64,000 nt of DNA, taken from assembly GCF_058153355.1 (NCBI RefSeq), contig NZ_CM177019.1. One strand, written 5' to 3'. Below the pieces are notes generated by a model. That model ran no database searches and was not told the origin of the DNA. It was given only the letters and a program-made list of their open reading frames with translations. The translations under genes and the position numbers were made by a program. Shown one piece after another: positions 3,016-53,470 of this stretch. How positions within the stretch are numbered: position 1 is the stretch's first letter; each line of letters opens with the position of its first letter.

Positions 3016-3028
3016 CACCGAAAAGGTG
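3016..3028. repeat. 13-bp target-site duplication, left copy (CACCGAAAAGGTG)
   Basis: Identical 13-mer directly flanks both ends of the IS element. Confidence 0.85.
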
Positions 3029-4454
3029 TAATGCCGATCAGTTAAGGATCAGTTGACCGATCCAGTGGCTGTGTAAGAATCCGGAAACGCTCACTTGTTT
3101 CCGGATTTTTTTATGCACATTGGACAGGCTCTTGATCTGGTATCCCGTTACGATTCTCTGCGTAACCCACTGACTTCTCTGGGGGATTACCTCGACCCCG
3201 AACTCATCTCTCGTTGCCTTGCCGAATCAGGTACTGTAACGCTACGCAAGCGCCGTCTTCCCCTCGAAATGATGGTCTGGTGTATTGTTGGCATGGCGCT
3301 TGAGCGTAAAGAACCTCTTCACCAGATTGTGAATCGCCTGGACATCATGCTGCCGGGCAATCGCCCCTTCGTTGCCCCCAGTGCCGTTATTCAGGCCCGC
3401 CAGCGCCTGGGAAGTGAGGCTGTCCGCCGCGTGTTCACGAAAACAGCGCAGCTCTGGCATAACGCCACGCCGCATCCGCACTGGTGCGGCCTGACCCTGC
3501 TGGCCATCGATGGTGTGTTCTGGCGCACACCGGATACACCAGAGAACGATGCAGCCTTCCCCCGCCAGACACATGCCGGGAACCCGGCGCTCTACCCGCA
3601 GGTCAAAATGGTCTGCCAGATGGAACTGACCAGCCATCTGCTGACGGCTGCAGCCTTCGGCACGATGAAGAACAGCGAAAATGAGCTTGCTGAGCAACTT
3701 ATAGAACAAACCGGCGATAACACTCTGACGTTAATGGATAAAGGTTATTACTCACTGGGACTGTTAAATGCCTGGAGCCTGGCGGGAGAACACCGCCACT
3801 GGATGATACCTCTCAGAAAGGGAGCGCAATATGAAGAGATCAGAAAACTGGGTAAAGGCGATCATCTGGTGAAGCTGAAAACCAGCCCGCAGGCACGAAA
3901 AAAGTGGCCGGGACTGGGAAATGAAGTGACAGCCCGCCTGCTGACCGTGACGCGCAAAGGAAAAGTCTGCCATCTGCTGACGTCGATGACGGACGCCATG
4001 CGCTTCCCCGGAGGAGAAATGGCGGATCTGTACAGTCATCGCTGGGAAATCGAACTGGGATACAGGGAGATAAAACAGACGATGCAACTGAGCAGGCTGA
4101 CGCTGAGAAGTAAAAAGCCGGAGCTTGTGGAGCAAGAGCTGTGGGGTGTCTTACTGGCTTATAATCTGGTGAGATATCAGATGATTAAAATGGCGGAACA
4201 TCTGAAAGGTTACTGGCCGAATCAACTGAGTTTCTCAGAATCATGCGGAATGGTGATGAGAATGCTGATGACATTGCAGGGCGCTTCACCGGGACGTATA
4301 CCGGAGCTGATGCGCGATCTTGCAAGTATGGGACAACTTGTGAAATTACCGACAAGAAGGGAAAGGGCCTTCCCGAGAGTGGTAAAGGAGAGGCCCTGGA
4401 AATACCCCACAGCCCCGAAAAAGAGCCAGTCAGTTGCTTAACTGACTGGCATTA
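3029..4454 (+). mobile_element. IS4 insertion sequence, 1426 bp, complete
   Basis: 18-bp imperfect terminal inverted repeats TAATGCCGATCAGTTAAG (3029-3046) and CTTAACTGACTGGCATTA (4437-4454); single transposase ORF; 13-bp direct repeats at both ends; length matches IS4. Confidence 0.9.
3113..4441 (+). CDS. insG: IS4 transposase (DDE family)
   Basis: ORF 3095-4441; start at [16 protein letters not shown] gives 442 aa. Recognised as the IS4 transposase. Confidence 0.85.
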
Positions 4455-4467
4455 CACCGAAAAGGTG
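4455..4467. repeat. 13-bp target-site duplication, right copy (CACCGAAAAGGTG)
   Basis: Identical to 3016-3028. Confidence 0.85.
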
Positions 4468-18109: not shown

Positions 18110-18348
18110 CAGGCTGTCGTTATTGTCTGGGAAAAGTGGAACGATAGTAGTGGCATCAGTGTCGCTACGCAAAGCATTCGCTATCAATCGGAATCCTCTG
18201 TGTCAGGTGCCACAGCTTCAATCTTTTACGCCCGTCAAATTGCCCGTTGCATGGCAATTTGGCGCAAAATACTATCTACTGACAAAAAAGATCGCATTAA
18301 GTTCGCCGTTCATCGTCACTTATGTGACATAACCGATAAGTAAAGGCC

Positions 18349-38934: not shown

Positions 38935-41076
38935 TCAAAATTCCATTTTCACCGTGAATTGCACTTCACGAGGATCGCCAATCTGGTTGCCCAGATTATT
39001 TGTGGCGATGGAAGAGGTGTAATACGTTTTATCAAACAGGTTTTTGACGTTTAATTGCAGTGTGACCGGATACTGCAATTTCATTTTGTATGCGGCGAAG
39101 GCATCGGCAACAAAATAGCCTGGCAGATAATAGTCAGCCCCATTGGTTGCCGAACGACGGCTTACACCATGTCCACCACCGCCAAACGTCAGTGTGTTAT
39201 TGCCTGGCATGTTATGAATATCATAGGTCAGGAATAGCGAACCGGTATGACGAGGAACATTCGGCAATGGTTTCCCTGCATAATCAGGATCCTCCAGAAC
39301 CTTAGCATCGGTATAGCCGTAGCTGGCAATGATATTAATGTTTTCAGTTAATGCTCCCGCAAGGTCGACTTCTACCCCTCTTGAACGAACACGGCCTGCC
39401 GTTTTGGCAATGGTTTCATCACCAACACTTTCGGTATACAACACATTACGTTTATGGATATCAAACAGCGCAATATCTGCGGTGATACCATCGAATAGCT
39501 CGAATTTTGCCCCGACTTCGTAAGCATTAGATGATTCTGGTGGCAGATCGCCAATGTAGCTGGCAATTGACGATTGCGGCATAAATGTTTGCGAATAATT
39601 GGCAAATAAGGATACCGATGGCGTCAGTTTGTAGACCAATCCCAGTTTGGGAGTCCATTGTTCATCGCGGCTGTCAGTATTGACATTAAAAGGACGGCCT
39701 TTACCCGCATACTGCGTGTAATACTGATAGCGGAGCCCGGCGACGGCAATCCAGTTATCGGTCAGATAGAGTGCGTCCTGTGCATACGCTGAGTAGCTCT
39801 CCTGTTTGATCGTCTGATCACTGTCCGACGCCGAAACCGTTGTGCATTTGCTGGTAATACCATAAACGGGGTTGTAGATATTGAAATCTTTAGCTTTTTT
39901 ACAGCGAATCATATCTGTGCGCAGAAGATCATAATATTCATATGACACCCCACCCAGAATCTCATTATAGAATCCAGCAACATCAACATTCCCTTGCAGA
40001 TCCGCACGAGTAGCATGCATACGCTGGGTAGATCCTTGAGTTGCATCAACACGCCGTGTCAGCGTTCCTGTCGTTGCATCATACGCGGTAACGCGAGCTT
40101 GATTATCGCTGTATTTATCCTGGCTGTAGCTGTAATCAAAGCGCGCTGTCCACTGGCTATTGAGATGATATTCTGCGTTGAGTTGCGCCAGATCGGACTG
40201 ACCATCTGTAATATTAAACGGTTCGTCAAAACGTATTTTTCGATCAACGTTTACGGGCTGTTTCGTCGTAAGGTCGAAAATCGTTCCACGATCGAACGGC
40301 GTTTTATAATCCCGATGAGAATAGAGCATGGTTACTGTTGCATTATCACCAAACCAGGTGAGTGATGGAGCAATAAATGTACTGCGCTCTTTACCGAAGT
40401 TTCGCCAGTAATCTTCATCTTGCACTTCCCCAATAAGGCGATACGCCAGCTGAGTGCCTTCAATGGGACCTGTGATATCCAATTGCCCAGTGCCTCCGCC
40501 AAAACTGGAGGAAGTGGCTGAGACAGTACCATGGAATGTTTTTTCCGGGCGCTTTGTCACGACGTTAATCAGTCCGCCAGGATCGAGAATGCCATACAGC
40601 GTGGAGGCCGGACCTTTTAGCACTTCCACACGCTCTGTGGCGGCGTTGAAACTGCGAGGAAGTACAGTTCGCAGGCCGTTGGTCATGATGGAGCCATCCC
40701 GGTTAGCACCAAACCCACGACGTACAAAAGCATCCTGAGTCCCGCCTAATGTATTGGTCTGTACCACGTTACTGACGTTATAAAGTGCCTCATCCAGCGT
40801 CGTCGCATTCTGATTTTCCAGAACTTGATCGCTAACCGTATTGACCACCTGCGGGATATCCAGCATCGGCATATCGGTTAATGTCGCCGTGGAGGTGCTC
40901 AGAGGTTGATAACCATCGGTCGCCTCAGTTGCGGTATTTGCATCCGCTGTAACAGTGATTGTTTCGCCATCTTTGGTCGTTACAGTGTCGGTTGCATGAA
41001 TCATCGGTGCTGCAAAGAGCAGTGAAAAGAGCGCTCGACCTTTGAGTCCTGAGAATGAAGGTGTGAACATAGCCAT
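38935..41076 (-). CDS. TonB-dependent outer-membrane receptor, siderophore type
   Basis: 713 aa; N-terminal signal peptide, TonB-box-like ETITVTA, plug-domain motifs, beta-barrel with C-terminal aromatic residue (...VKMEF). Confidence 0.85.
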   Translation of the reverse strand: MAMFTPSFSGLKGRALFSLLFAAPMIHATDTVTTKDGETITVTADANTATEATDGYQPLSTSTATLTDMPMLDIPQVVNTVSDQVLENQNATTLDEALYNVSNVVQTNTLGGTQDAFVRRGFGANRDGSIMTNGLRTVLPRSFNAATERVEVLKGPASTLYGILDPGGLINVVTKRPEKTFHGTVSATSSSFGGGTGQLDITGPIEGTQLAYRLIGEVQDEDYWRNFGKERSTFIAPSLTWFGDNATVTMLYSHRDYKTPFDRGTIFDLTTKQPVNVDRKIRFDEPFNITDGQSDLAQLNAEYHLNSQWTARFDYSYSQDKYSDNQARVTAYDATTGTLTRRVDATQGSTQRMHATRADLQGNVDVAGFYNEILGGVSYEYYDLLRTDMIRCKKAKDFNIYNPVYGITSKCTTVSASDSDQTIKQESYSAYAQDALYLTDNWIAVAGLRYQYYTQYAGKGRPFNVNTDSRDEQWTPKLGLVYKLTPSVSLFANYSQTFMPQSSIASYIGDLPPESSNAYEVGAKFELFDGITADIALFDIHKRNVLYTESVGDETIAKTAGRVRSRGVEVDLAGALTENINIIASYGYTDAKVLEDPDYAGKPLPNVPRHTGSLFLTYDIHNMPGNNTLTFGGGGHGVSRRSATNGADYYLPGYFVADAFAAYKMKLQYPVTLQLNVKNLFDKTYYTSSIATNNLGNQIGDPREVQFTVKMEF

Positions 41077-41176
41077 TTAGTCTGTTATCCCAAAAACTCG
41101 CGGATTGTCGCGAGTGAAAATTGTTTCTTATTGCTCACTAAGCACTATCCGTTTGTTATTTCGCCATCGGATATGT

Positions 41177-41195
41177 AATTGAGAATCATTCAATC
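41177..41195. promoter_or_regulatory. Candidate Fur box in the divergent control region of the island
   Basis: AATTGAGAATCATTCAATC; the core TGAGAATCATTCA matches the Fur consensus TGATAATCATTAT at 11 of 13 positions. Lies in a 373-bp AT-rich region between the receptor gene and the ABC operon. Confidence 0.45.
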
Positions 41196-41449
41196 ACGCG
41201 GTAATGTAGTAGTAAATGAGAAATAACAAAAAATTGCTACATGTGTTTTTATGAAAGGTTTATACAATTTAATTGTTTTTAATTTATTGATATTTAATGT
41301 TTTTATTTGTATGTGCAAAAATATTTTACCTGTTATTTACCTTGTTTTTGTGTGGCTTTTAACTGCTTGACTACTACATTTTGTGGCGTCAAACTCTCAA
41401 AGGAGAATGAGTTTTATTTTTGTTTGTCTTTGATTAAGTTGGCGTACAC

Positions 41450-42259
41450 GTGGCACATAACGCAAAAGGGCAGGGGCTGATCCTCGACAATGTTTCTGCC
41501 GGGTATCACAAGAAAATCATTGTTGATGGTGTTTCTTTCTCCGTTCCCACAGAAAAAATGACCGTTCTGGTTGGGGCAAACGGCTGTGGAAAGTCGACGC
41601 TGCTCAGCACCATTGCTCGTATCTTGCAACCCATGGGCGGTTCGATATTGCTTGATGGCAACGCGATTCACGAGCAACCAACGAAAGCGTTATCCCGTAG
41701 ACTTGGGATCTTGCCGCAGTCGCCATTATTGCCGGAGGGCTTAACCGTTTATGAACTGGTGTCGCGTGGGCGTTTTCCCTGGCAGAATTTCATTCGTCAA
41801 TGGAGCGATGCCGATGAGCTGGCGGTAGAAGAGGCCCTGAAATTAACGGGTACGCAGGAGTTTGCACATTTACCTGTTGAAAAACTCTCTGGTGGGCAGC
41901 GCCAGCGTTGCTGGATTGCGATGGTGTTGGCGCAAAAGACGCCTTATATCCTGCTGGATGAACCCACAACATGGCTTGATTTACGTTATCAGGTTGAAAT
42001 TCTTGAGTTATTACATGATTTAACGCGTCATCACGGGCGTACAGTCGTCGTGGTGTTGCATGATCTGAATTTTGCCGTCAATTATGGCGATACGTTGATA
42101 TTTTTACGCCAGGGGAAAGTGGTGCGTGTGTTGAATGAGGGGGAGCATTGCACGCCTGAGCTGGTAAAAGCGGTCTTTGACGTTGATGTTCACGCATCAA
42201 TAAATCCTCTGACGGGAAAGCCGTTCTTCATGCCGTTTCGTGGTGTAGAAAAAGTATGA
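41450..42259 (+). CDS. ABC transporter ATP-binding protein, FepC/FhuC/FecE-like
   Basis: 269 aa; Walker A GANGCGKST, signature LSGGQRQR, Walker B ILLDEPT, H-loop; apparent GTG start. Confidence 0.85.
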   Translation: MAHNAKGQGLILDNVSAGYHKKIIVDGVSFSVPTEKMTVLVGANGCGKSTLLSTIARILQPMGGSILLDGNAIHEQPTKALSRRLGILPQSPLLPEGLTVYELVSRGRFPWQNFIRQWSDADELAVEEALKLTGTQEFAHLPVEKLSGGQRQRCWIAMVLAQKTPYILLDEPTTWLDLRYQVEILELLHDLTRHHGRTVVVVLHDLNFAVNYGDTLIFLRQGKVVRVLNEGEHCTPELVKAVFDVDVHASINPLTGKPFFMPFRGVEKV

Positions 42260-43239
42260 TGCGCACAGGGCTGGTTACTGTAATTTTCCTCGCCTTACTG
42301 CTGGTGGGATGCGTGGTATATCCAGGGATTGGTGCCCGATTTATTGCACCACAAACGGTGTTGCAGGCATTTCTTCATTTTGATCCGCAAAACTTCGATC
42401 ACAACGTAATTGTAAGACTCCGTTTGCCGCGTTTAGCGGCAGCATTGCTTACCGGTGCTTCTCTTGGTGTTGCTGGTGCTTTGTTGCAGGCTGTCATTCG
42501 TAACCCATTGGGGGAGCCACATATTTTAGGCTTAAATGCCGGAGCCGCTCTTGCTGTCGTTGCCGCCAGTGCGCTTGGACTGGCCTTTCCGATTGGACGC
42601 CCACTGCTGGCATCTACGGGGGGCGCGTTATTGTTCCTGTTGATATTGCTGCTTTCCTCCGCAGGGCGTTCAGGGTTAACGCCAATGAAAGTTACTTTAT
42701 GCGGCGTGGCGCTATCGGCGTTCGTGTCCTCAATAACGGCTGCAATCCTGATTCTTGACGAACAAACACTGCTGGCGATGCGGACATGGCTAGCAGGTGA
42801 TTTAGCGGGGCAGGATTGGGCGACGCTGGGTACGTCCGCCTGGTTTTCTCTGGGGGGATTTGTGTTAGCCCTTTACCTTGCACCCTCCCTTAACATGTTG
42901 GCACTGGGCGATCGCATGGCGCAGGGGCTGGGCGTCTCTGTATTCCGCACGCGAACATTCACCCTGCTTGCGATCGCGTTGCTCTGTGGCGCAGCCGTAT
43001 CGATTGCTGGCCCCATTGGTTTTGTCGGCCTGCTAGTACCGCAGATTGTCCGGCGTCTGGTATCAGCGGATCTGTGCGTTCTGCTCCCTCTTTCAGCTTG
43101 TGTCGGCGCACTTTTGTTATTACTGGCAGATATTATTGCCCGTACGCTTTTCACGCCCCATGAGTTAGCGACCGGTGTCATGACGGCGTTAGTTGGTGCG
43201 CCTGTTTTTGTCATTATGGCGACGAGGATGTTCAAATGA
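42256..43239 (+). CDS. ABC transporter permease, FecCD family (iron-siderophore/B12 type)
   Basis: 327-aa polytopic membrane protein; start overlaps the ATPase stop (ATGA). Confidence 0.85.
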   Translation: MMRTGLVTVIFLALLLVGCVVYPGIGARFIAPQTVLQAFLHFDPQNFDHNVIVRLRLPRLAAALLTGASLGVAGALLQAVIRNPLGEPHILGLNAGAALAVVAASALGLAFPIGRPLLASTGGALLFLLILLLSSAGRSGLTPMKVTLCGVALSAFVSSITAAILILDEQTLLAMRTWLAGDLAGQDWATLGTSAWFSLGGFVLALYLAPSLNMLALGDRMAQGLGVSVFRTRTFTLLAIALLCGAAVSIAGPIGFVGLLVPQIVRRLVSADLCVLLPLSACVGALLLLLADIIARTLFTPHELATGVMTALVGAPVFVIMATRMFK

Positions 43240-44285
43240 GTCGGATAATGAACGTCGGGCTACGCCCACTACGTGTTGGTAAGTTTTCGACACTGGTACG
43301 CCCTAAAAATCTGCTGTTGCTTGGTGGGCTGTTCCTGCTTGCGGTTGGAATACTGATATTCGGTCTGATGCAGGGTTCTTTCTCTGTTCCGGCATCGGAA
43401 GTAGGACGAGCGTTGTTTGCTCCAGAAAACGTAAGCACAGACGCACGTTATATTGTGCAGGATATTCGCTTGCCGAGAGTCATCATGGCATTGCTATGCG
43501 GGGCCATGTTAGGTATGGCAGGGGCCGCAATGCAATCCATTGCACGTAACGGCCTTGCCGATCCTGGTTTAATCGGCGTCAAAGAAGGATGTAGCGTGGC
43601 TGTGCTGTGGCTGATTTTCCAGTTTCCAATGCTGGGAATGTTCTGGCGTCCAGTGGCTGGTCTTGCTGGCGGCCTGTTGGTGGCTTTAATCGTGATTTTT
43701 TGTGCGCGCGATATTTCCCGCCCGCGATTTGTTCTGATTGGTATTGGTGTTTCCTGGTTTTTCGCCGCCGGTATCGGTGTATTTATGACCACTGCAGATG
43801 TTCGAGATGTACAAACTGCATTGATGTGGTTATCGGGAAGCCTGCATGCAGCTAACTGGATGTTAGTCGGTATTTCAGCCTGTTGGATGTTGCCAGCCGC
43901 TCTTTTATTGCTGTTCACCGCCAGGAAGGCGGATATCGCTCTGCTTGGTCATCAGGTGGCAACCGGGTTAGGCGTGAATAGTTCTCGCCTGGCGTTGTTA
44001 CGTGTCGCCGCACCCATAATCCTGACAGCCGTCTGCGTTTCGTGTGTTGGTAACATAGGTTTTGTCGGATTGATAGCACCCCATATATCACGTTTTATTC
44101 TACGTGGCGGGCAGACGACATTACTGCTGGGGAGCGCGGTATCGGGGGCGTTGTTAGTTATTCTGGCGGATAGCATTGGTCGTTTGGCTTTTTTGCCTTT
44201 GCAACTGCCTGCCGGAATCATTATCTCACTGATTGGTGGACCATTTTTTTTGCTACTGCTCTGGCAGCGCAGGAACAGTTTTTAA
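43236..44285 (+). CDS. ABC transporter permease, FecCD family, second subunit
   Basis: 349-aa polytopic membrane protein; start overlaps the upstream stop (ATGA). Confidence 0.85.
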   Translation: MSRIMNVGLRPLRVGKFSTLVRPKNLLLLGGLFLLAVGILIFGLMQGSFSVPASEVGRALFAPENVSTDARYIVQDIRLPRVIMALLCGAMLGMAGAAMQSIARNGLADPGLIGVKEGCSVAVLWLIFQFPMLGMFWRPVAGLAGGLLVALIVIFCARDISRPRFVLIGIGVSWFFAAGIGVFMTTADVRDVQTALMWLSGSLHAANWMLVGISACWMLPAALLLLFTARKADIALLGHQVATGLGVNSSRLALLRVAAPIILTAVCVSCVGNIGFVGLIAPHISRFILRGGQTTLLLGSAVSGALLVILADSIGRLAFLPLQLPAGIIISLIGGPFFLLLLWQRRNSF

Positions 44286-44295
44286 CGGGAGTTAT

Positions 44296-45243
44296 ATGCG
44301 TTTATTTTTTTCTCTGCTGATACTGTTGTCATTTTTTTCCCGTGCAACAGAACCTGTTCAGGTATTTACTGATGATTTAGGGCGCAAAGTCACTGTTCCT
44401 GCTCATCCAAAGAGAATTGTCTCTTTACACGATCTTGATATCACTATTCCTCTGATTGAGCTCGGTGTACCTCCTGTCGCCAGCCACGGGCGAACTCGGC
44501 CTGACGGTAGCCATTTCATTCGATCTGGCGCGTTATTGACAGGTGTCGACTTTGATAATTCATCGATCGCCTTTATTGGTACCGCTGATATTGATATTGA
44601 AGCGATTGTGGCGGCAAAGCCTGACCTGATCATCACAGAACCGACCCGTAATACGCCCATTGAACAACTTGAAAAAATTGCGCCCACGGTGAGCATTGAT
44701 CATCTCAAAGGGGGCGCGCCAGAAATCTATCGCAAGCTGGCAGAACTTACAGGAACGCAGTCGCAGCTGGCGATACTTGAACGCCGCTATCAGGCACAAA
44801 TCAATGCGCTGAAGGCGACGCTGGACAGCCAAAAAATAACGGTATCGGTGATTCAGGCAAACCAGGGAAAAATTAATGTGATGCATAGCTATCATTCGCT
44901 GGGGCGGGTATTACGCGATGCTGGTTTTCGTTTTCCGCCGCTGATTGAGAGCATTCCTGAAGGTGGGCGAATGGATGTGAGCGCGGAGCGTTTACCTGAA
45001 CTGGATGCCGATTTTGTTTTTGCAACCTGGCGCGGTGACACCGGTGGTAAACCTCAGGATGAGCTGGCAGCAATGGAAAAAGTCATGCCGGGATGGTGTC
45101 AGTTTCTGACTGCCTGTCGTTCCGGGCGTTATGTGCTGATTTCTCGTGAAGAGGCAATTTCTAACTCCTTTGCATCTCTGGGGCTGATGGCTGCGCAGAT
45201 ACAATCACAAATTGCAGGGCGACCTCTACCGGAGGCTAAATGA
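44296..45243 (+). CDS. Periplasmic substrate-binding protein, class III (siderophore/heme/B12-type)
   Basis: 315 aa from MRLFFSLLILLSFFSRATEP (signal peptide); typical size and architecture; GGGA ribosome-binding site upstream of the ATG at 44296. Confidence 0.8.
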   Translation: MRLFFSLLILLSFFSRATEPVQVFTDDLGRKVTVPAHPKRIVSLHDLDITIPLIELGVPPVASHGRTRPDGSHFIRSGALLTGVDFDNSSIAFIGTADIDIEAIVAAKPDLIITEPTRNTPIEQLEKIAPTVSIDHLKGGAPEIYRKLAELTGTQSQLAILERRYQAQINALKATLDSQKITVSVIQANQGKINVMHSYHSLGRVLRDAGFRFPPLIESIPEGGRMDVSAERLPELDADFVFATWRGDTGGKPQDELAAMEKVMPGWCQFLTACRSGRYVLISREEAISNSFASLGLMAAQIQSQIAGRPLPEAK

Positions 45244-46127
45244 TCCAGAAAGATAAAGCGCGGGTTGATATTTTTGGTGAGCGTTTTCGCACTCGCGCGA
45301 GTCAGTTAACGCCTGGGTTAAGAGCTGTCGCCAGCTACATTAATGAGCATCGTGAAGTGGTACTCGAGCAAACGGCGATGGAAATTGCGGCCACGTTGAA
45401 CACTTCCGATGCCACAGTTATCAGGGCTATACAGGCCCTGGGGTTTGCCGGGCTGCGTGATCTGAAACGCACTCTGGAACAGTGGCTTGGTCCAGCCCTT
45501 AGTTCCAGCGAAAAGATGTCTACGACGGTGAGTAACTTGACGAGCGATGTTAACACCGCAATCGACTTTGTTCTTGAAGGGCATTTGTATACCTGTAATG
45601 TCCTGTCAGAGCCTGAAAACCGCCACGCGCTTGCGCAAGCTGTAGCGTTGTTGGTGCAGGCACGGCAAGTCGCAATTTTTGGCATTGGCGCTTCGGGTAT
45701 TCTGGCGGACTATACCGCACGACTATTCAACCGCATAGGTTTGCCTGCCACGGCACTAAACCGTACGGGTATTGGCCTTGCCGAGCAACTGATCGCGCTT
45801 CAACGTGGCGATGTTCTGATCATGATGGCGCAAAAATCTGCGCACCGGGAAGGGGTGACGACGCTTCGTGAGGCGAGGCGGCTGGGGATCCCTGTTATTT
45901 TGCTGACAAACGCGCTGGATTCACGTTTTAGCAAAGACGCCAGTATCGTGATTCATGTTCCGCGCGGGGATGAAAAAGGGAAAACGCCGCTACATGGTAC
46001 GGTATTGTTGTGTCTGGAAATGATTGTCTGGTCGGTAGCTTCCGCAGTGCCGCAGCGTGCGGTTAAAACCATTAAGCGAATTAACGATTTCCATCGAGGA
46101 CTGAAAACGGGAAGAAAGAATGGCTAA
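45240..46127 (+). CDS. RpiR-family transcriptional regulator (N-terminal HTH_6 + C-terminal SIS sugar-phosphate-binding domain)
   Basis: 295 aa; HTH region (...QTAMEIAATLNTSDATVIRAIQALGFAGLRDLK) followed by a SIS-like fold (VAIFGIGASGILADYTARLFNRIG...); start overlaps the stop of the binding-protein gene. Confidence 0.75.
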   Translation: MIQKDKARVDIFGERFRTRASQLTPGLRAVASYINEHREVVLEQTAMEIAATLNTSDATVIRAIQALGFAGLRDLKRTLEQWLGPALSSSEKMSTTVSNLTSDVNTAIDFVLEGHLYTCNVLSEPENRHALAQAVALLVQARQVAIFGIGASGILADYTARLFNRIGLPATALNRTGIGLAEQLIALQRGDVLIMMAQKSAHREGVTTLREARRLGIPVILLTNALDSRFSKDASIVIHVPRGDEKGKTPLHGTVLLCLEMIVWSVASAVPQRAVKTIKRINDFHRGLKTGRKNG

Positions 46128-46171
46128 TCTGGGCTGAGACCGGTAGCAGCACCGGCCTCTTTTCAGGAATG

Positions 46172-47789: not shown

Positions 47790-49139
47790 TTACCAGCTTA
47801 CTTTCGCCTCAAATCCACCTTGTTCCGCATTCCCAAACTCAACATTCATGCCATGCAGCTTGGCGATTCGCTGGACAATTGAAAGCCCAAGTCCACTGCC
47901 GGTAGCGGTTTGTCCGGGTGGGCGATAGAAGCGTTCGCCAATTCTCGCCAGTGCCTCTGGTGTCACACCGGGGCCGTTATCCCTCACGATGAAATTATCG
48001 GCATTCAGCGTGACGTCCACCACGCTACCTTGTGGACTGTAGCGCACGGCGTTATCCAGCAAATTTCGCACCAACAAACTTAGCAATAGCGGTTGTCCGG
48101 TGCGTTTGATGCCGTGGGCATTGAGTGTCAGTCGCACGTCAATTTTCGCTTGCTGCGCCGTGTGGTAAATATCCATCACCGACGATTGCAGGAGATCTTC
48201 AAGCGGGATCTCCGCGACGTCCTGAAGGTTATCCAGTGAGTCCAGCCGCGATAGCGTGAGCAGTTGATCAACCAGACGAGTAGCACGATCGATTCCGGAA
48301 TGTAATTGAAGCAGCGCTTTTTTCCGCGCCTGCGGATCATCGTCAGAGAGCTGCGCAACTTCGGTTTGCACTTTCAGCGCCGTTAACGGGCTACGAAGTT
48401 CGTGAGCTGCGTCGGAGGTAAAGCGTCGTTCACGAACCATCATCGCATGTGTGCGGGCGAACAGTTGATTCAACGACTCAACCAGTGGACGCACTTCGCT
48501 GGGTACGCCCGTCGCGTTTAGTGGTTTTTCCGAGTCAGGGTCACGCATACGTAGTGCCAGCGCCAGTTTGTTCAGCGGCGCGAGTTCTCGTCCCAATAGT
48601 ACCATCATAATGATTAACATAATCGGCAGTGCGACCAGCCACGGGATCAATTGCCCGGCAACAATCGCCAGCGCCATGTCTTCACGGTATTCCCATTCCT
48701 GACCAACAACGATGCGATATTTGCCATCAGGTGAGGTCATCCAGACAAAACGCCAGGGATCGTCTTCACCGACCAGTTGCCCGTCAGCAAAACCTTCCCG
48801 TTGATAGCTATAGGGAATATCTTCTCCGTTATCGCCATCGTTAAGGACCATTCTGCCGTCGTGGGTAAAGATGGCAAAGGTCAGCGCATCGTCATCAACA
48901 TGACCGTGTTTTAATTTATTTGGCGTCTGTGCCATGCGATCCGCCGCGTTGATTTCGTTGAGATCGAGCGTACTTAACCGTTTGGCAAACAGCATCAGTT
49001 GGGTGTCGAACAACTCATCGACGTTATCCGTTGTTTGTTTCCAGGCGACAAAGCTGGAAAGCAGCCAGGTCACCGAGGCCAGAATTAAAAAGATTAGCGT
49101 CAGCCTGACTCGCAGACTAAGACGTTGGGTAAATTTCAT
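47790..49139 (-). CDS. qseC: Sensor histidine kinase QseC
   Basis: 449 aa; two transmembrane helices, H-box [10 protein letters not shown], HATPase_c. Confidence 0.93.
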
Positions 49140-49795
49140 TTCTCACCTAATGTGTAGCCAATACCATGCACGGTACGAATAAAATCACTACCGAGTTTGC
49201 GTCGCAGATGATGCACATGCACTTCAACGGCATTACTGGTGACCTCTTCGTCCCAGGTATACAGTTTCTCTTCAATCAGTTTGCGCGGCAGTACTCGACC
49301 AGCGTTACGCATCAGTAATTCCAGCAGGGCAAATTCTTTTGGTTTCAGCGTTAAGGGTTCGCCAGCCAGCGTGGCGATACGTTTGCCGGGGTCGAGCATG
49401 ACGTTGCCGTGGCGCAGCTCGTTGCTGGCCTGGCCGTTGGTTCGGCGCATCAGAGCTTCCAGCCTGGCGGCGACTTCTATCAACGCAAAAGGTTTACACA
49501 GATAATCGTCAGCTCCCAGACGCAGCCCTTCTACACGTTCCGCCAGCGCATCGCGCGCAGTCAGGATTAATACCGGCTCACGCTGACCTTTTTCTCGCCA
49601 TTCGCGCAAAATATCGCGACCATCCATGCCCGGTAAGGTTAAATCCAGGATTACCGCATCATAAGGTGCGCTATATAGCGCCTCTTTTCCCTGACGACCT
49701 TGTGTAAACCAGTCGACGCTAAAACCCATTTTACTAAGGCCCGTTTTGATGCCGTCGCCAATCAGCATGTCATCTTCTATCAGTAAAATTCGCAT
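49136..49795 (-). CDS. qseB: Response regulator QseB (OmpR family)
   Basis: 219 aa; [15 protein letters not shown]...; stop overlaps the qseC start. Confidence 0.93.
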
Positions 49796-49946
49796 TTTTT
49801 CATCCCTGCGATAACCATATTTGCTGCCAGTAAACCGTGTTGTAACGCGCTCTGTACAGCACTAAATTTTATTTTTTTCCCTTAAGAAGTTGTTAAGGAC
49901 TATCTTGTTAAATGCTCGAAAACAGACATTAAAGGGAGTAATAAAC

Positions 49947-50339
49947 ATGAAAAAATTCGCAGCAGTAATCGCAGTAATGGCCCTGTGCAGTGCACCGGTG
50001 ATGGCAGCAGAGCAGGGCGGTTTTTCTGGTCCATCGGCAACACAAAGTCAGGCCGGAGGATTCCAGGGGCCGAATGGCAGCGTAACGACCGTAGAAAGCG
50101 CAAAATCCCTGCGTGATGACACCTGGGTCACCCTGCGCGGCAATATCGTTGAACGTATCTCTGACGATCTCTACGTGTTCAAAGATGCCAGCGGTACTAT
50201 CAATGTTGATATCGACCACAAACGCTGGAACGGCGTGACGGTGACCCCGAAAGATACCGTTGAGATTCAGGGTGAAGTCGATAAAGACTGGAACTCTGTT
50301 GAAATTGACGTCAAACAGATCCGCAAAGTAAATCCGTAA
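49947..50339 (+). CDS. ygiW: Periplasmic OB-fold (BOF/YgiW family) stress protein
   Basis: 130 aa from MKKFAAVIAVMALCSAPVMAAEQGGF... Confidence 0.88.
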   Translation: MKKFAAVIAVMALCSAPVMAAEQGGFSGPSATQSQAGGFQGPNGSVTTVESAKSLRDDTWVTLRGNIVERISDDLYVFKDASGTINVDIDHKRWNGVTVTPKDTVEIQGEVDKDWNSVEIDVKQIRKVNP

Positions 50340-50391
50340 TTGTTAGCGCTCCCGGGACACGTTCCCGGGAATAATTTCGCAGGGAGGCAAA

Positions 50392-50874
50392 ATGAAAAAC
50401 CTGACACTGGATGTAAATATTATCGATTTCCCATCAATCCCTGTGGCGATGTTGCCACATCGCTGTAGCCCTGAATTGCTCAACTACAGCGTGGCGAAAT
50501 TTATCATGTGGCGTAAAGAAACGGGGCTTTCTCCTGTTAACCAAAGCCAGACTTTTGGTGTCGCCTGGGATGACCCTGCCACCACCGTACCGGAAGCGTT
50601 TCGCTTTGATATCTGCGGCAGCGTTAACGAACCGATTCCCGATAATCGTTATGGCGTGAGTAATGGTGAACTTACCGGGGGACGTTATGCCGTGGCCCGC
50701 CACGTTGGCGAGCTGGACGATATTTCACATACGGTATGGGGCATCATTCGCCACTGGCTGCCTGCAAGCGGCGAGAAAATGCGTAAAGCACCGATTCTGT
50801 TTCACTACACCAATCTTGCCGAAGGGGTAACAGAGCAGCGACTGGAAACGGATGTTTATGTGCCGTTGGCGTGA
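50392..50874 (+). CDS. ygiV: GyrI-like domain transcriptional regulator
   Basis: 160 aa. Confidence 0.85.
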   Translation: MKNLTLDVNIIDFPSIPVAMLPHRCSPELLNYSVAKFIMWRKETGLSPVNQSQTFGVAWDDPATTVPEAFRFDICGSVNEPIPDNRYGVSNGELTGGRYAVARHVGELDDISHTVWGIIRHWLPASGEKMRKAPILFHYTNLAEGVTEQRLETDVYVPLA

Positions 50875-51211
50875 TGAAGAATCTTTACCGGAGTGTGAGC
50901 CAAATCACTCGCTATCAGTTTAAGTTAACGATGCCACAGGCGTATTGTTGTCCGCTCAGACTCTGACGGCACAGGATTTTGTCCTTCCACACAGAAACCG
51001 CCATTGGCGGTTTTCCGCTGCATAATCCGCAGGATTATGTCTACAGCAAAGAGTTGTATATCAAGGCACATTGATGCCTTTATCGCCGTCGGAGCACGTC
51101 CGGCGGCGCTATTCACGCTGATCTCCTGTGACTCGACGCGGCAGATAATGTAGTATCTCCGGCAATATTGCCCCTTTGAAGGCTGGCGAATAAGTTGAGG
51201 AATCAGAATTA

Positions 51212-53470
51212 ATGAGCGATATGGCAGAGCGCCTTGCGCTACATGAATTTACGGAAAACGCCTACTTAAATTACTCCATGTACGTAATCATGGACCGTGC
51301 GTTGCCGTTTATTGGTGATGGTCTGAAACCTGTTCAGCGCCGCATTGTGTATGCGATGTCTGAGCTGGGCCTGAATGCCAGCGCCAAATTTAAAAAATCG
51401 GCCCGTACCGTCGGTGACGTACTGGGTAAATACCATCCGCACGGCGATAGCGCTTGTTATGAAGCGATGGTCCTGATGGCGCAGCCGTTCTCTTACCGTT
51501 ATCCGCTGGTTGATGGTCAGGGGAACTGGGGCGCGCCGGACGATCCGAAATCGTTCGCAGCAATGCGTTACACCGAATCCCGGTTGTCGAAATATTCCGA
51601 GCTGCTATTGAGCGAGCTGGGGCAGGGGACGGCTGACTGGGTGCCAAACTTCGACGGCACTTTGCAGGAGCCGAAAATGCTACCTGCCCGTTTGCCGAAC
51701 ATTTTGCTTAACGGCACCACCGGTATTGCCGTCGGTATGGCGACCGATATTCCACCGCATAACCTGCGTGAAGTGGCTCAGGCAGCAATCGCGTTAATCG
51801 ACCAGCCGAAAACCACGCTCGACCAGCTGCTGGATATCGTGCAGGGGCCGGATTATCCGACCGAAGCGGAAATCATCACCTCGCGTGCCGAGATCCGTAA
51901 AATCTACGAAAATGGTCGCGGTTCTGTGCGTATGCGCGCGGTGTGGAAGAAAGAAGACGGTGCGGTGGTTATCAGCGCATTGCCGCATCAGGTTTCTGGT
52001 GCGCGCGTACTGGAGCAAATTGCTGCGCAAATGCGCAACAAAAAGCTGCCGATGGTTGACGATCTGCGCGATGAGTCTGACCACGAGAACCCGACCCGTC
52101 TGGTGATTGTGCCGCGTTCCAACCGCGTGGATATGGATCAGGTGATGAATCACCTTTTCGCCACCACCGATCTGGAAAAGAGCTATCGTATTAACCTCAA
52201 TATGATCGGTCTGGATGGGCGTCCGGCGGTGAAAAACCTGCTGGAAATTCTCTCCGAATGGCTGGTGTTCCGCCGCGATACCGTGCGCCGCCGACTGAAC
52301 TATCGTCTGGAGAAAGTCCTCAAGCGCCTGCATATCCTTGAAGGTTTGCTGGTGGCGTTTCTCAATATCGACGAAGTGATTGAGATCATTCGCAATGAAG
52401 ATGAACCGAAACCGGCGCTGATGTCGCGGTTTGGCCTTACGGAAACCCAGGCGGAAGCGATCCTCGAATTGAAACTGCGTCATCTTGCCAAACTGGAAGA
52501 GATGAAGATTCGCGGTGAGCAGAGTGAGCTGGAAAAAGAGCGCGACCAGTTGCAGGGCATTCTGGCGTCCGAGCGTAAAATGAATAACCTGCTGAAGAAA
52601 GAACTGCAGGCAGACGCGCAAGCCTACGGTGACGATCGTCGTTCGCCGTTGCAGGAACGCGAAGAAGCGAAAGCGATGAGTGAGCACGACATGCTGCCGT
52701 CGGAACCCGTCACCATTGTGCTGTCGCAGATGGGCTGGGTACGCAGCGCTAAAGGCCATGACATCGACGCGCCGGGCCTGAATTATAAAGCGGGTGATAG
52801 TTTCAAAGCAGCGGTGAAAGGTAAGAGCAACCAACCGGTAGTGTTTGTTGACTCCACCGGTCGTAGCTATGCTATCGACCCGATTACGCTGCCGTCGGCG
52901 CGTGGTCAGGGCGAACCGCTCACCGGCAAATTAACGTTGCCGCCTGGGGCGACCGTTGACCATATGCTGATGGAAAGCGACGATCAGAAACTGCTGATGG
53001 CTTCCGATGCGGGTTACGGTTTCGTCTGTACCTTTAACGATCTGGTGGCGCGTAACCGTGCAGGTAAGGCTTTGATCACCTTACCGGAAAATGCCCATGT
53101 TATGCCGCCGGTGGTGATTGAAGATGCTTCCGATATGCTGCTGGCAATCACTCAGGCAGGCCGTATGTTGATGTTCCCGGTAAGCGATCTGCCGCAGTTG
53201 TCGAAGGGTAAAGGCAACAAGATTATCAACATTCCGTCGGCAGAAGCCGCGCGTGGCGAGGATGGTCTGGCGCAACTGTACGTTCTGCCGCCGCAAAGCA
53301 CGCTGACCATTCATGTTGGGAAACGCAAAATTAAACTGCGTCCGGAAGAGCTACAGAAAGTCACTGGCGAACGTGGACGCCGCGGTACGTTGATGCGCGG
53401 TTTGCAGCGTATCGATCGTGTCGAGATCGACTCTCCTCGCCGCACCAGCAGCGGCGATAGCGAAGAGTAG
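51212..53470 (+). CDS. parC: DNA topoisomerase IV subunit A
   Basis: 752 aa; [49 protein letters not shown]... Confidence 0.96.

Follow-up and report, generated by a model that had tools for sequence, protein, structure and literature searches.

In Escherichia coli K-12 MG1655 the genes run in the order parC-ygiS-mqsA-mqsR-ygiV-ygiW-qseBC, and 2775 bp separate ygiV from parC. In the 64,000-nt stretch of DNA analysed here (the window), ygiV ends at 50874 and parC starts at 51212 in the list of open reading frames, which leaves 337 bp between them. The question is how this interval came to be so short, and what that says about the mqsRA toxin-antitoxin module. The initial annotation had placed mqsR, mqsA and ygiS between ygiV and parC in K-12, instead of the two genes being directly adjacent there, and had concluded that the window has no room for them. 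The MG1655 annotation and the gene coordinates agree with both points, and alignment of the ygiV-parC region with K-12 confirmed that the window is without mqsR, mqsA and a functional ygiS. By these alignments the gap is ordinary strain variation, in which the mqsRA cassette was never acquired and ygiS was separately deleted.

The flanking genes have the same order and orientation as in K-12 (b3019-b3023), and both sides of the spacer are recognisable. The genes qseC (47790-49139) and qseB (49136-49795) lie on the minus strand, and ygiW (49890-50339) is the upstream neighbour of ygiV. On the plus strand, ygiV (50392-50874) is intact and encodes a GyrI-like/AraC-family regulator of 160 aa, 98% identical to K-12 YgiV over 160 aa by tblastn; the same ORF is annotated as ygiV in relatives. 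The intact parC ORF (51212-53470, plus strand, 752 aa) is annotated as parC in all relatives, and plsC and ftsP follow 3' of it, in that order. The interval was aligned piece by piece with K-12, Nissle 1917 and 2020CK-00188; the last of these is the complete genome closest to the window, 99.0% identical over 22 kb, and has an intact ygiS and no mqsRA. It had been described as containing no intact ORF. There is indeed no gene in it, although mechanical ORFs of 31-63 aa exist, and the ORF at 50979-51074 includes the in-frame C-terminal 23 aa of YgiS. Rfam gave no known RNA family for 50700-51350 at E <= 1. Over 50300-51400 a promoter scan found no sigma-70 consensus, and a terminator scan returned one weak site (50931-50943) against 1.3 expected by chance, so the native ygiV terminator and the parC promoter were left unassigned. 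The native ygiS-parC intergenic region, which presumably holds the parC promoter, occupies 51075-51211 on the plus strand and is 100% identical to that of 2020CK-00188; together with the ygiS 3' end, it is 98.6% identical to K-12.

The left part of the interval (50875-50952, plus strand) is the ancestral ygiV-ygiS spacer with an unoccupied mqsRA insertion point. It can be aligned with K-12 to the left and right of the cassette, and also with the spacer of genomes having ygiS without mqsRA. K-12 carries 927 bp in place of AAGAA (50877-50881), just past the ygiV stop codon, ie TGATG is followed by the cassette and then by TCTTTACCGG, whereas the window reads TGATG-AAGAA-TCTTTACCGG without interruption (50872-50889). 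In K-12 the cassette contains a promoter/operator, mqsR, mqsA and a terminator, and its GC content is 41.1%, compared to 52-53% in the flanking ygiV and ygiS. K-12 thus differs from the window in having both the cassette and a full ygiS, of which approximately 93% is gone here. The published layout of the occupied locus is ygiV - 204 bp - mqsR mqsA - 132 bp - ygiS (Table 1 of PMC5120126). When K-12 MqsR and MqsA were used as tblastn queries, no homologue was found in the 64-kb window (best E = 0.95, over short stretches), and blastn with the cassette matched the spacer and ygiS fragments only. Neither the arrangement that defines the module, mqsR (a 98-aa RNase) directly upstream of mqsA (131 aa), nor its location at the ygiV-ygiS junction is found in the window. 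Within the spacer, six substitutions relative to the closest relative fall within 18 nt at 50913-50930 (CTATCAGTTTAAGTTAACG vs CGATAAGTTTGAGCGAACA), some of them common to deep Escherichia lineages (L008, which is MOD1-EC7003, L009 and L012).

The same uninterrupted site is present in Nissle 1917, ST131 and 2020CK-00188 and in all five outgroup loci. The outgroups were the five loci obtained among GTDB species representatives with a YgiV query; E. fergusonii and Salmonella were not recovered. Three of them, E. albertii, E. whittamii and a divergent "E. coli" representative, have ygiW-ygiV-ygiS-parC and no mqsRA, the empty site of E. albertii and E. whittamii being identical to that of the window. 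The other two Escherichia species (MOD1-EC7003 and E1V33) have a degraded ygiS and, again, no mqsRA. In complete E. coli genomes all mqsRA copies (n = 2298) are at least 99% identical to K-12, whereas the ygiV end next to the cassette ranges from 90 to 100% identity. Because the outgroup sites are empty, the GC content is low and the copies are uniform beside a variable ygiV end, mqsRA is taken to be a derived, recently spread insertion. On this comparison the window shows the ancestral condition, a site that mqsRA never occupied. Chromosomal toxin-antitoxin modules, mqsRA included, have been described as horizontally acquired intergenic insertions between core genes (PMC5120126; PMC7167474), and PMC5120126 cites Ramisetty & Santhosh 2016 and Fiedoruk 2015 for it. 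The presence or absence of mqsRA at a fixed intergenic site follows the pattern of other horizontally acquired type II cassettes of E. coli, with the difference that the window holds the unoccupied site and no module. That mqsRA is accessory and was acquired horizontally has thus been published before, and its variation has already been described.

The frequency of each arrangement was determined in 5426 complete RefSeq E. coli genomes. The module is present in 2298 (42%), at a median of one place per genome; 2289 of these have the ygiV-mqsR junction and in none is it on a plasmid. A ygiV-ygiS junction with an empty mqsRA site is found in 1756 genomes, a 545-bp ygiV-parC allele in 1357 (25%), and the 337-bp allele of the window in 13 (0.24%), with 97.3-99.1% identity. 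These four classes total 5424 of the 5426 genomes, a near-exact partition, which implies that, with at most a handful of exceptions, mqsRA has no other location in genomes whose site is empty or deleted. Absence of mqsRA, at 58%, is the majority condition in E. coli, and the ygiS-deletion allele of the window is rare. The initial annotation took the short interval as the mark of a strain lacking mqsRA, and treated the three genes as one missing block. As regards the locus, alignment and tblastn support the absence of mqsR and mqsA; the missing block is the part that did not survive. Beyond the 64-kb window the population data have to speak for the strain, which is very probably without mqsRA altogether, since the window has no homologue, 2289 of the 2298 complete E. 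coli genomes with mqsRA have it at the ygiV junction, and the module is never on a plasmid.

The history of ygiS, which encodes an ABC-type periplasmic substrate-binding protein, is different. Genomes with the ancestral ygiV-ygiS-parC arrangement, among them Nissle 1917, ST131 and 2020CK-00188, keep an intact gene of 1608 bp, whereas the window retains only nt 315-347, approximately 896-908, and 1538-1608. The first remnant (50953-50985, plus strand) is 33 nt long, corresponds to nt 315-347 (aa 106-116), and is identical to intact ygiS at 30 of the 33 positions (91%, E = 4e-6); the tblastn match to YgiS aa 106-116 is weak. It is followed by a 6-nt filler, TCCACA (50986-50991, plus strand), with no match to intact ygiS. 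The second remnant (50992-51005, plus strand) corresponds to nt about 895-908, codons E-K-P-P-F, and contains the exact 13-mer AGAAACCGCCATT found at the collinear nt 896-908; in 2000 shuffles no 13-mer match arose. The third (51004-51074, plus strand) comprises the last 71 nt including the TGA stop (aa 513-535), and is 98.6% identical to K-12 (E = 1e-30) and 100% identical to the closest relative. Its reading frame is kept (95.7% over aa 513-535, E = 9e-10 by tblastn), and in two genomes with the 337-bp allele PGAP labels this piece an incomplete pseudogene. The spacer breaks off immediately ahead of the ygiS -10 box (TATAAT); this box, the ribosome-binding site and the start codon are all deleted, and no ORF of 535 codons under a promoter and ribosome-binding site of its own is left. 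What remains is a set of three collinear fragments of significant identity at the orthologous position, as expected for a pseudogene. By alignment, then, ygiS was once present and is now decayed, with about 93% of its coding sequence deleted. The treatment of the three genes as a single missing block was mistaken on the evidence of the outgroups and these alignments: mqsRA is ancestrally absent, and ygiS is a true loss that left scars.

A hairpin within the interval had been placed at 50995-51014 and read as the terminator of ygiV. The palindrome is real, one base shorter than described: AAACCGCC-ATT-GGCGGTTT is a perfect 8-bp hairpin at 50995-51013 on the plus strand, with a predicted stem of 8-9 bp, a 3-nt loop and a folding energy of -12.5 kcal/mol (z = -2.6). 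It spans the junction of the second and third ygiS remnants. The left arm is ygiS nt 898-905, carried by remnant 2, and the right arm nt 1540-1547; in the intact gene about 640 nt separate them, and they were brought together where nt 908 joins nt 1538 at a 2-nt TT microhomology (51004-51005). The equivalent stretch in the intact ygiS of 2020CK-00188 forms a different hairpin of -7.5 kcal/mol (z = -0.4). An origin of the left arm by quasi-palindrome (template-switch) correction of AAACCCTACGTTGGCGGTTT was considered and rejected, given the exact 13-mer at ygiS nt 896-908.

The reading as a ygiV terminator does not stand. Both arms are ygiS coding fragments, the structure lies 120 nt beyond the ygiV stop, and it is absent from the relative with intact ygiS. 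It does have the GC-rich stem-loop of an intrinsic terminator, without a U tract of at least 5 T in the 8 nt after the stem: only TTTT follows the GC core, three of these T pairing with the A-tract, and having only 4 T after the stem it was not called in the terminator scan of 50300-51400. Judged from its sequence, the hairpin is a scar left by a deletion, not the terminator of ygiV, and at most it may by accident stop some read-through. Could it nevertheless have been recruited as a functional, selected terminator that would shield parC from ygiW-ygiV read-through? The perfect 8-bp stem, its stability and the TTTT that follows would suit such a role, and the hairpin is identical in two other genomes with the 337-bp allele while several other positions of the interval vary. 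That invariance, however, covers three sequences only. An ancestral ygiV terminator would not have arms made of joined coding remnants, the run of T is short and escaped the scan, and ancestral genomes have no equivalent structure. Native hairpins of the ygiS 3' end are in any case conserved just downstream, at 51063-51080 (across the ygiS stop codon) and, GC-rich, at 51084-51108, and that region folds with -30.9 kcal/mol (z = -3.5). We consider selection for termination unlikely, and keep to the deletion scar. The case illustrates that a convincing-looking terminator hairpin can be the scar of a deletion.

A never-occupied mqsRA site and a heavily decayed ygiS pseudogene would jointly explain the 337 bp, and we hold this explanation with high confidence. 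The ancestral Escherichia order would have been ygiW-ygiV-ygiS-parC. The 927-bp low-GC cassette would then have inserted after the ygiV stop in part of the species E. coli, K-12 among them, and the lineage of the window would never have received it. In that lineage at least three internal deletions would independently have destroyed ygiS, their number and order being read from the fragments, and one junction would have put AAACCGCC beside GGCGGTTT to give a hairpin by chance. The predicted outcome is a strain that has neither MqsR/MqsA activity nor the periplasmic binding protein YgiS. Its parC would keep the native 137 bp upstream, and transcription from ygiV would probably meet the scar hairpin and then the old ygiS 3' hairpins before reaching parC.

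A single deletion that removed mqsR, mqsA and ygiS together from a K-12-like ancestor would fit two simple facts, that K-12 has all three genes in the interval and that none is functional in the window. Such a deletion is, however, very improbable, and we regard it as effectively refuted. It would not have kept a continuous spacer on both sides of the insertion point, and the junction recurs in all five outgroup species, none of which has mqsRA. In the closest relative ygiS is present without mqsRA, the three separate fragments imply several deletions confined to ygiS, and the cassette combines a foreign GC content with at least 99% identity over 2298 genomes. That the interval is an artefact of assembly, ie a collapsed or mis-joined contig, can practically be dismissed: it has no specific support beyond the lack of an identical match to the window among complete RefSeq genomes, whereas 13 independent complete genomes have the 337-bp architecture with identical junctions at 97.3-99.1% identity, and the flanks are collinear with relatives across the whole window. 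Within the preferred history, namely an empty mqsRA site and a decayed ygiS, the allele need not be native to this lineage. The left spacer and remnant 1 are 91-92% identical to the closest relative, and the part to the right of 51004 is 100% identical to it; this divergence on one side hints that the 337-bp allele may have been imported by recombination and not have arisen in the lineage of the window.

The loss of ygiS is not confined to the 337-bp allele. The 545-bp allele (eg in STEC711) resembles the window in that mqsRA is absent, ygiS is deleted, and ygiV lies next to parC. It arose independently, with other deletion endpoints and a group II intron-like insert: ygiS nt 1-22 and 1567-1608 are kept around a single-copy fragment of 236 bp (3614-3849 of the STEC711 locus, L003). 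By blastn this fragment resembles the 3' ends of group II introns, matching sequence that adjoins or overlaps ltrA or maturase genes in records of E. coli, Polaromonas, Cupriavidus and Sinorhizobium. Rfam, its group II intron model included, gave no match to the 545-bp allele (L003 3400-4100). The blastn matches suggest that ygiS was first invaded by an intron, and that most of the gene and of the intron was lost afterwards. Among other Escherichia species, MOD1-EC7003 keeps ygiS nt 464-538, 617-683 and 1361-1608, and E1V33 keeps nt 82-254 and 1354-1608. All of these endpoints differ from those of the window, which makes at least four independent inactivations of ygiS. The right-hand endpoints in MOD1-EC7003 and E1V33 (ygiS nt 1361 and 1354) are only 7 nt apart.

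This evidence for recurrent ygiS loss across Escherichia is the only mildly new element of the analysis. It bears on the disputed MqsR-YgiS-deoxycholate story, which reportedly goes back to work by Kwan in 2015, in which YgiS is said to promote deoxycholate uptake. The link of MqsR to YgiS and deoxycholate has been disputed (PMC6918082). As a tentative and rather speculative suggestion, recurrent loss might reflect selection against a periplasmic binding protein that imports deoxycholate, in which case deletion of ygiS would be a genetic route to bile tolerance independent of MqsR.

The weight given by the initial annotation to the absence of mqsRA for persistence and biofilm phenotypes was overstated, with 58% of complete E. 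coli genomes in the same condition and the phenotypes not reproduced. An independent study could not reproduce the biofilm and stress phenotypes attributed to mqsRA (PMC6918082, PMC7167474). Moreover, such phenotypes cannot be general traits of E. coli, because the module is found in only 42% of genomes and its absence is ancestral. K-12 should not be taken as the reference state for the ygiV-parC locus, in which mqsRA is a minority, recently spread insertion. The modest use of the present results lies in the census of four ygiV-parC alleles and in the identification of ygiS, not mqsRA, as the gene that is repeatedly lost.

Some other differences were observed elsewhere in the window. A complete IS4 of 1426 bp lies at 3029-4454, between rpoD and mug; the closest relative, 2020CK-00188, lacks it. 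The element ends in inverted repeats and is flanked by a target duplication of 13 bp (CACCGAAAAGGTG, at 3016-3028 and 4455-4467), and its transposase ORF (3095-4441) matches the NCBIfam IS4 model with E = 9e-91. Conversely, at 18348/18349, between ygiF and ygiM, 2020CK-00188 has a 1.84-kb ISEc41 that the window does not; this element carries an IS200/IS605 tnpA and a TnpB/InsQ RNA-guided endonuclease gene. In K-12 parE is the direct neighbour of ygiN; in the window the two are separated by an iron-siderophore uptake cluster of approximately 7.2 kb (about 38935-46130). Its genes encode a TonB-dependent receptor (38935-41076, minus strand), an ABC ATPase, two FecCD permeases, a substrate-binding protein and a MurR/RpiR regulator. 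Of these, the gene for the substrate-binding protein (44233-45243) is intact in the window and frameshifted in 2020CK-00188.
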